A DNA stretch of 64,000 nt from Octopus sinensis (lineage: Eukaryota): NCBI RefSeq assembly GCF_006345805.1, contig NC_043005.1:51150001-51214000 (forward strand), read 5' to 3'. Within the stretch, counting starts at the first letter, position 1. The number at the start of each line of letters is the position of its first letter. Below are positions 50,401 through 53,400 of this stretch, in pieces. A program made the translations under genes and the position numbers. A model generated the notes under the pieces. That model was given only the letters and a program-made list of their open reading frames with translations. It did no database searches and was not told the origin of the DNA.

Positions 50401-53400
50401 TCAAATTCACGCGCTTATTGCAGCGGTCCGTCAGTTTTTCTAGGCGCTGTAAAAGAACTCAGAAGGTAGGGTCTCCAACCAGACTTTCGCGATACCCGTA
50501 AAGCCAGGAACTTTTCAACCTCCTCTCCTCTTACGTACATACATACATGCATACATATATGTGTGTGTGTGTGTGTGTGTGTGTGTGTGTGTGTGTGTAA
50601 GTATATATGTATACATATATATATATAAATATACATATACATATATACTATAATATACATATTTATATATATATATATATATTGTTATAAAAAAAGGGGG
50701 GGGTCGAATTAATTAATTATTAATAAATTCGACCAAGCAGTATTCGGTATGTAAAGACCATTTACGGTATATTTGAAGTATTAATTTATAAAAATATGGT
50801 AAAGTAAAAGATCACTTTACCACACACACCAACATTTTCAGAAAGTTGAAGAAATAGCCAAATTTTTGGCTGCTATTTCTGCTATTTGCAGTTGAAGAAA
50901 TAGCCAAATTTTTGGCTGCTATTTCTGAAAAGTTCGGTGTGTGGTAAAGTGAATTCTTTTACTTTACCATATTTTTATAAATTATATATATATATATATA
51001 TATATATATATATATATATATATAATATATATATATATATTGAAGTAGATAATGAATTATCTTATAACGGATAATTCAAATGATAACCGATACCTGGGTA
51101 GCAAAAATCACAACAGAAAGAGCACGGTTGAAGTTACGACCATGGGGCATAAAATCCGTGCCTTTGTGCGGAAATTTGAAGTTTTATATATAAAGTATAG
51201 GAAAGAATGGAGCTGAACGAAGATTTAACAAAATTCCTTTATTTTATTTTCGACATATGTTTCGAAGTCTGCAAAGTCCCTAATTCCGATTGAATAAGGA
51301 GTCCATTTTGCAGCTTTCTCTTCAGGAAAATCCAGGAACTTAATTCTCCAACAAAATGCACAACAAGCTTTTCGACAAACGCTCACGAGGAGCTCATGAA
51401 ATTAATGATACAAACCCTCTATCTATATGCATCCAATCTGGCGTCAACGCATATAGATAGACAGTTTGTATCATTAATTTCATGGGCTCCTCGTGAGCGT
51501 TTGTCGAAAAGCTTGTTGTGCATTTTGTTGGAGAATTAAGTTCCTGGATTTTCCTGAAGAGAAGCTGCAAAATGGACTCCTTATTCAATCGGAATTAGGG
51601 ACTTTGCAGTCTTCGATACATATATCGAAAATAAAATAAAGGAATTTTGTTAAATCTTCGTTCAGCTCCATTCTTTCCTATACTTTATATATATATATAT
51701 ATATATATATATATACACACACACACACACACATAATATATATATTATATAATATATATATATATATATATATATATATATGCATACCTTACTAGTTAGG
51801 GTATTGTACTCATGATCGGGTTACGTGCAGAGTTCTTGAGCAAAACACTTCATTTCACGTTGGTCCACTCTATACTCAGCCGACGAAAATAAATAATTCT
51901 GCGACGGAAAGGTCTCCCGTCCAGAAGTGGGTGGGGTAATATATATATATATATATATATCGGGGTAACTAGCTTTATGAGCCTATCGTTCGGGAAGGCT
52001 CTTTGATTCTTTGTGTATGTATATATGTGTGCATATATAAAGCGTATTGGACAAGTTGTTACAGCGTCCGGTAGATTGCTTTACCGTAATAATTCCAGTT
52101 CTCTAAAACTAGGATGGGTTCCATCAAGTAGTAAAAGTTACCTAGCATCTATGTTACAATTGTGTCTCTACAATTTTATATTGGACTGAGGCCTAAATCC
52201 ATAGTATATATATATATATATATATATATATATATATATATATATATATATATATATATATATATATATATTATATATATATATATATATAATATACAAA
52301 GTGATGGTTTGTTGCCAACTTAATTTGGCAGTTCCAGGAAAGGGACTATTTAGCCCTAAGAAACACCGTTTCTAGTTGGCTACGTGACACAAACGTCCTG
52401 TGTACTTAAGTTTTCAAACAGAGGAGATAAGCACCTCCAGCCAACAAAGCTAGCTACTAGAGACTAGTTTCAGAGTACTTGCTCTTCATCAGTCTGGAAT
52501 AGCTTGGCTTTGCTAGCCCTCGGTGCAAAATCGCTGTTGAAAGATTATCGAATTTCAAGTGAAATAAATCCACTGATCTACAAAATTAGAAATACTGCAT
52601 TTCTAAATCTCTTAGTGACACTTTTGCAGTAGCAGCACGATAAAGCAATGGTTGGTTTGTTGCCAACTTAATGTAACAGTCCTAGAAAAGTGAAGAATGC
52701 TACTGCTATTTAGCCTCAAGAAACACCGTTTCTAGTTGTTTACGTGGCACAATCGTTTTGTGTCCTGATGTTTTCAAACAGGGGAGATAAGCACCTCCAC
52801 CCAACAAAGCCAGCACACAGAGACTAGTTTCAGGGTAGTTTCCTTTCATCAGTCTGGAGTACCATCCCTTTATCATGCTGCAACTGCATAACTCTCTCTG
52901 AGAGATTTAGAAATGCAATATTTCTATTTTGTAGATCAGTAAATTTATTTCACATGGAATTCTGTAAGTTTTCAACAGCAAATTAGCACCAAGAACTAGC
53001 AAAGCCAAGCTACTCCAGACTCATGAAGGGCAACGAAATCTCTTCCTGAACTCCCTCAAAACCTTCATAAGGCACTCTTTGTTGACTGCCTGACGATGGG
53101 GGAAACCCTGTGATGTAGTCGATATACTTGTTATCGAAAAAGGGAATCATCATGAGCTCACCAGTCGACTTTGCCTGCCCTCTCTTGTGCCAACGAAAAA
53201 TAGATGCTCAACTCATACAATTTATTCCATTGACAGTCTGCAGCATTTCATAACTTTCTGTAGTATTTTTGTTCCAATTTGATACAAAACTCTATTTCAT
53301 AGTGTGCTTCCGAATAGTCTTCGTGTGCCGACTGCATTCAGCAAACTACTCAGTTGTAACAAGTAGTGTTTAGTAGGATGCGTTCAAAGTGCTGTCACCG

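Follow-up and report, generated by a model that had tools for sequence, protein, structure and literature searches.

A mutated tandem hammerhead repeat in an Octopus sinensis intron, probably a crippled copy of a dispersed retrozyme-like family with a Penelope-type layout

The window analysed here is a 64,000-nt stretch of the Octopus sinensis genome (NC_043005.1, positions 51,150,001 to 51,214,000). Its + strand carries, at 18270-63370, a multi-exon gene with EGF-like, VWD, C8 and TIL domains (mucin/hemolectin/SCO-spondin-like). In the intron that separates a C8-domain exon from a TIL-domain exon of this VWD/C8/TIL (mucin/hemolectin-like) gene lies a hammerhead-bearing element, antisense to the intron (Table 1). 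An earlier note on this DNA had described two direct repeats with minus-strand hammerheads, an inverted third copy and an adjoining (TA)n tract, and this anatomy is present. Each direct repeat contains a minus-strand type I hammerhead with the order CUGAUGA-helix II-GAAA-CUAG-UC, at 52852-52822 in copy A and at 52492-52462 in copy B, and the gac triplets at 52822-52824 and 52462-52464 are exactly 360 nt apart. The third copy, C, is inverted, has a dead core (CUCAUGA at 53020-53026 of the + strand) and is broken off in loop II, while the (TA)n tract adjoins the element at its other end. The direct repeats are a true pair but not two full units: copy A breaks off at its 5' end about 10-15 nt before its core, and the arrangement therefore amounts to one and a half units.

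Table 1. Features of the hammerhead element and its surroundings, with loci of the zinc-knuckle insert elsewhere in the genome
Feature	Position	Strand	Remarks
Host intron	50079..54061	+	GT at 50079, AG ending 54061, reading frame consistent
(TA)n run, likely insertion target	52205..52296	.	at element 3' end
Copy B, complete unit: left part, hammerhead, right part	52297..52652	-	ends at commonest family 3' end
Hammerhead B, type I	52437..52520	-	core 52492-52486, cut site after 52462
Putative cut-to-cut monomer, 360 nt	52462..52821	-	40% GC
Copy A, 5'-truncated tandem copy: hammerhead and right part	52653..52861	-	head-to-tail with copy B
Hammerhead A	52797..52865	-	core 52852-52846, cut site after 52822
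Copy C, inverted: left part and 5' half of hammerhead	52861..53034	+	core CUCAUGA
Unrelated older repeat, likely mariner-type transposase remnant	53030..53500	-	not part of element
Zinc-knuckle insert loci	L060, L064, L071, L110-L164; e.g. G000:C1:22607716-22609609; C4:96982924; C2:142108461		

The direct repeats (52653-52861 against 52305-52501) are 79% identical when gaps are counted and 83% identical ungapped over 166 nt, and copy C is 84% identical to the left part of copy B. Copy B has a 12-nt deletion relative to copy A. Hammerhead B combines a 4-bp helix II and a palindromic ACUAGU loop III with a C-A mismatch at helix I pair 4; hammerhead A has an A-C mismatch in helix II and has lost the distal 5' arm of helix I. 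The putative 360-nt monomer contains no ORF of at least 70 aa and, folded as a circle, is predicted to reach -90.9 kcal/mol with 58% of its bases paired (z = -1.5 against 60 shuffles). An Rfam search of 48000-58000 at E<=1 listed neither hammerhead A nor hammerhead B and gave only a weak Hammerhead_1 match at 48172-48214; there, on the minus strand, a CCGAAGA core adjoins (TA)n and resembles the end of a Penelope-like element. No target-site duplication is readable at the locus, since one end lies in (TA)n and the other was lost at the junction with the older repeat. That repeat and the end of copy C have 5 nt in common, an overlap that points to a later deletion. The Pfam match of the repeat is weak (HTH_48, E=0.053), and the mariner label is in part presumed.

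Several further structures were seen in the window. The inverted repeat 52479-52652/52861-53034 is predicted to pair over 145 bp in the host pre-mRNA as well, where it likely forms dsRNA and is a possible substrate for A-to-I editing. At 51185-51693 of the same intron lies an inverted repeat of 250 bp, almost perfect (97-98%) and with 18 nt between its arms, which is MITE-like or a foldback element. Another superfamily member, on the minus strand of 13250-13560, has a hammerhead that is well formed: its core is at 13391, helix I has 6 bp and loop III is an 8-nt palindrome. Every complete hammerhead that we saw in the window lies on the minus strand, and the only sense-strand copy, copy C, is dead. 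A hammerhead-like string at 53090 was dismissed as chance because copies of the neighbouring repeat do not conserve it, and a motif at 20711 is not a hammerhead.

The unit recurs throughout the genome. A first look gave 1,983 candidates, and among the 40 that were scored the best other copy reaches 84% identity. The exact core pattern occurs 588 times genome-wide (relatives included) compared with 0 for a reversed control, so the hammerhead motif is not a product of chance. The family is large, dispersed and non-coding. Partial tandems of the Penelope type are seen among its copies, as are inverted copies on the 5' side and a pair of fixed 3' ends. Among the best 30 loci, the 3' end falls at the unit end in 17, after a tail of ~70 nt in 11 and elsewhere in 2; an inverted piece adjoins the unit in 14, and TATATA stands at the 3' end in 11 (by-eye count). 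Partial tandems with the same junction recur across these family loci. Upstream of the unit, the best 30 loci and 25 further ones show another unit's end, an inverted copy, flanking sequence or a zinc-knuckle insert (described below), and never a sense RT or GIY-YIG frame.

Two related lineages (66-71% identity in the aligned stretches) share the unit size of this one and occur as dimers too; in three lineages we found units of 349-361 nt joined head to tail (L059, L058, L130). When we searched for two intact ribozyme 3' halves 325-355 nt apart, 13 of the 19 matches proved to be one unrelated minisatellite, and two loci of this lineage and four of a related lineage were recovered, indicating that dimers like the pair at the locus are rare. 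One related ~350-nt lineage (L041, L043, L057, L058) is dimeric and has the core (U/C/A)UGAUAA, that is, A at position 8; the U3-A8 form at L057 would be a compensated core variant. Locus L059 (G000:C20:23586026-23586733) is an array of two and a third units with intact ribozymes and two nearly identical full copies. It is the better candidate for an active source, though duplication in place at a recent date or an assembly error could also account for it.

Circular RNA expression is the experimental hallmark of animal non-LTR retrozymes (Cervera & de la Pena 2020, PMC7229834), and the octopus element belongs to them on those features that a sequence can test. At the locus these are a type I hammerhead in each unit and a head-to-tail, non-coding 360-nt unit of 40% GC; the animal elements, as outlined in that paper and in a 2026 preprint (Li, Clavereau & Pollet, bioRxiv 10.64898/2026.07.22.740005), likewise have a non-coding unit of 150-450 bp with one type I hammerhead and GC below 50%, and occur both as dimers and as numerous single copies. 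In size the unit agrees with the mussel repeats (350-390 bp; PMC7229834). Its helix III, a single pair capped by a palindromic tetraloop, follows the axolotl/newt design, which functions in dimeric form (PMC7229834); axolotl HHR_Amex1 cleaves well only as a dimer. The octopus family departs from the animal retrozymes in that its copies are nearly all dispersed monomers or partial tandems with no long arrays seen, that they often carry an inverted copy on the 5' side or the fixed ~70-nt tail, and that the family is old. It is unlike plant LTR retrozymes, in which a type III hammerhead lies in LTRs accompanied by a PBS and PPT; here the hammerhead is type I, with helix I as the open arm. Our literature searches found no report of such retrozymes from octopus or other cephalopods and brought up only PMC8557442, a twister paper and PMC10886601, which proved irrelevant, although Repbase/Dfam, subscription journals and preprint supplements may hold such families.

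The layout of the copies resembles a second group of elements. In the pseudo-LTRs of EN+ Penelope-like elements (PLEs; Penelope/Poseidon, Neptune), as they are portrayed in PMC8557442, a partial tandem is likewise combined with an inverted 5'-adjacent copy, an optional tail, a (TA)n bias and a hammerhead within the repeat. The earlier note had called the element retrozyme-like with a Penelope-type tandem-plus-inverted arrangement, a description borne out both by the layout of the 30 family loci and by what that paper depicts. The differences from the pseudo-LTRs are that no ORF is present here, that the tail is ~70 nt as against the 30-40 nt given there, that the ribozyme is not of the minimal form, its helix I being extended and interrupted by an internal loop, and that the inverted copy has lost its outer end, likely through a later deletion (PMC8557442 for the Penelope-like side).

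Are the copies, then, only the 5'-truncated pseudo-LTR ends of an autonomous Penelope-like element, with no self-standing non-autonomous family behind them? Their layout equals that of PLE insertions as given in PMC8557442, PLE ORFs are plentiful in the genome, and the preprint cited above includes the proposal that retrozymes derive from such pseudo-LTRs (10.64898/2026.07.22.740005). We nevertheless consider it unlikely, given the consistent lack of a sense RT/GIY-YIG frame before the unit in the 30 best and 25 further loci and the head-to-tail dimers in three lineages. The only RT frame abutting a copy (L079) is antisense to the ribozyme and was rejected as a parent. The element itself is not an autonomous Penelope-like element, as the RT and GIY-YIG ORF expected between pseudo-LTRs is absent.

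The genome does contain a young PLE family with a GIY-YIG-like domain (L080-L109; e.g. G000:C20:16425329), with 15,349 candidates, 150 of them scored at 94-100% identity. Its open frames extend up to 854 aa, and the GIY-YIG-like frame has a Pfam match at E=0.0012; from its motifs we take this family to be Neptune-like. It ends in (TA)n and has its own CCGAAGA-core hammerhead with a long helix II insert. Because it differs from the retrozyme unit in hammerhead and 3' end, and shows no similarity to the unit by eye, we regard it as at most a partner in trans. It shows that such machinery exists in this genome, not that this machinery moved the retrozyme family.

The preferred reading, a self-standing family of hammerhead repeats, raises the question of whether its ribozymes ever worked. 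We compared 27 hand-picked ribozymes from four lineages, counting helix I pairs from anchors. Of the 27, 25-26 retain pairs 1-4 of helix I, with compensatory changes on both sides from one lineage to another. In 25 the palindrome of loop III is perfect, although it occurs in three different sequences and its length varies. The compensation in helix I and the retention of the palindrome suggest that the ancestral ribozymes were likely dimeric. Covariation in helix II did not exceed that of shuffles (58/500). All 12 core bases are intact in 20 of 29 other full copies, and across those 29 copies the core bases changed less often than other non-CpG columns (11/348, 3.2%, against 730/9593, 7.6%; p=0.0008), a contrast that weakens to p=0.02 when subfamily columns are removed (non-core rate 6.1%) and that may carry selection bias, the copies having been chosen by likeness to a query with an intact core. 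Taken as sequence patterns, these data indicate that the family's ribozymes were likely functional in the past. The UAC bulge and the CAA..A loop II of the family may be comparable to the tertiary contact of the Schistosoma hammerhead.

The earlier note had gone further and suggested that a minus-strand transcript of this locus cuts itself twice as a double hammerhead in cis and yields a 360-nt, possibly circular RNA antisense to the intron. The part that concerns design holds, in that the ribozyme needs a dimer formed through the palindrome; the locus as the source of such an RNA is not supported. In favour of it, both 12-nt catalytic cores have survived the decay, both palindromes are likewise intact, paired intact 3' halves are found at only 2 loci (6 with the related lineage), the dimer is topologically nested and drawable, and mussel retrozymes of 350-390 nt are reported as abundant circles in PMC7229834. 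The pairing of core B with site A is good (-23.9 kcal/mol), so one cut would be possible. The reverse pairing, core A with site B, forms three helix I pairs and then a mismatch (-16.6 kcal/mol), and helix II of A, with its A-C mismatch, is worth only -0.5 kcal/mol. The double-hammerhead fold is predicted to lie 37.4 kcal/mol above the minimum, as compared with 4.1 kcal/mol for dimer L059. In a read-through minus-strand transcript, moreover, copy C and the left part of copy B are predicted to form 156 base pairs, a duplex that would sequester hammerhead B by covering six of the seven bases of its CUGAUGA. These energies describe secondary structure only and ignore loop I-loop II tertiary contacts and kinetics. 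The locus also has no known promoter and a 5'-truncated copy A, and in the preprint cited above only one of nine predicted genomic dimers cleaved in vitro (10.64898/2026.07.22.740005). We thus regard production of the 360-nt RNA here as very doubtful; the folding predictions indicate that the locus is probably inactive today, its ribozymes catalytically crippled. A read joining 52821 to 52462 would resemble an ordinary read through any family hammerhead unless it carried locus-specific variants on both sides.

The decay also bears on how the three copies arose. Copies A, B and C differ from the family majority at 18/209, 31/358 and 15/176 positions, respectively, which is 8.5-8.7% in each case. 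A and B have none of their derived changes (18 and 15) in common, and C and B have one. This pattern is as would be expected of copies made together and decaying independently since. A single insertion duplicated later by unequal crossing-over or repair, which would leave the tandem uninformative about an RNA multimer and seems to have occurred at L059, where the full copies are nearly identical and have private variants in common, is highly improbable here given the lack of common changes and the recurrence of partial tandems with the same junction across the family, which largely refutes late duplication and does not reach duplication right after insertion.

A separate observation from the family survey is more surprising than the hammerhead pair at the locus. 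A LINE-like element of ~1.7 kb, with a zinc-knuckle ORF only and an AATAAA end, recurs 27-28 nt upstream of the hammerhead core; it is absent from the window's locus. It occurs in at least two retrozyme lineages (~70% identical), with tandem re-insertions. A zinc-knuckle frame lies directly upstream of the ribozyme in 3 of 20 further loci, two of them with zf-CCHC matches at E 0.0005-0.002, and the ESM Atlas gave zinc-knuckle leads only, all below 0.9. We queried the genome with the 3' end of the insert stripped of target sequence (206 candidates, 40 scored, 30 fetched). In 14 of the 30 fetched loci the insert is followed by this family's hammerhead, a count that includes the query locus, one core-deleted case and one after a short internal duplication; a second lineage's hammerhead follows in 6, a hammerhead-like third sequence in 1, and a short target-like spacer and then apparently another copy in 9. 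An independent search with the insert protein gave 25 loci, partly overlapping that set. The left part of a retrozyme stands directly before the insert 5' end in 17 of these, while two follow another copy, two show a target-like motif only and four have no 5' end in view; in 11 of the 25 the insert 3' end was not found within the fetched span. No ORF2 was seen between the insert ORF and the 3' end.

At the four loci where both ends were seen (L071, L119, L144, L151), ~12-17 nt of the ribozyme 5' arm are duplicated. The duplicated target would restore this arm and leave the ribozyme whole just downstream of the insert. The insert is comparable to target-specific non-LTR retrotransposons of the Tx1/R1 type, which, in the account given in PMC4640811, also have a fixed AATAAA 3' end, are truncated to varying extents at the 5' end, duplicate ~12-17 nt, re-insert in tandem and use another repeat as their target. 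It differs from them in showing a zinc-knuckle ORF1-like frame only, with no ORF2, and in having a hammerhead 5' arm as its target. We put at about even the chances that the retrozyme superfamily hosts a site-specific LINE-like parasite that inserted independently many times at the hammerhead 5' arm. If so, a ribozyme arm would be the target of a retroelement, both filled and empty sites would be at hand, and the downstream ribozyme could trim the parasite transcript or carry it in Penelope-type retrotransposition. We found no paper on a ribozyme-targeting insert of this kind; repeat databases may already hold the insert family.

Taken together, the intronic element is probably a copy, mutated and likely old, of a non-coding hammerhead repeat of ~350-360 nt, likely inserted by the Penelope route and predicted to be crippled. 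In the life cycle that we propose for the family in its active period, two hammerheads of a multimeric transcript would join by way of the palindromic loop III to form a dimer, and each core would cut the other copy's site. Unit-length RNA would be released and probably circularised. A Penelope-like RT/GIY-YIG protein might then copy this RNA, for more than one round, into TA-rich DNA, and a single insertion event of this sort would leave behind one complete unit together with a tandem copy truncated at its 5' end and a copy in inverse orientation. No autonomous element with this unit was found, which leaves the mobilising partner a putative one.

The locus itself matters little, being one fossil among roughly two thousand. 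The family, by comparison, extends retrozymes to the octopus genome, and its units were inserted with the full Penelope signature of partial tandem, inversion, tail and TA target. This signature supports the idea that Penelope-like enzymes may mobilise retrozymes.
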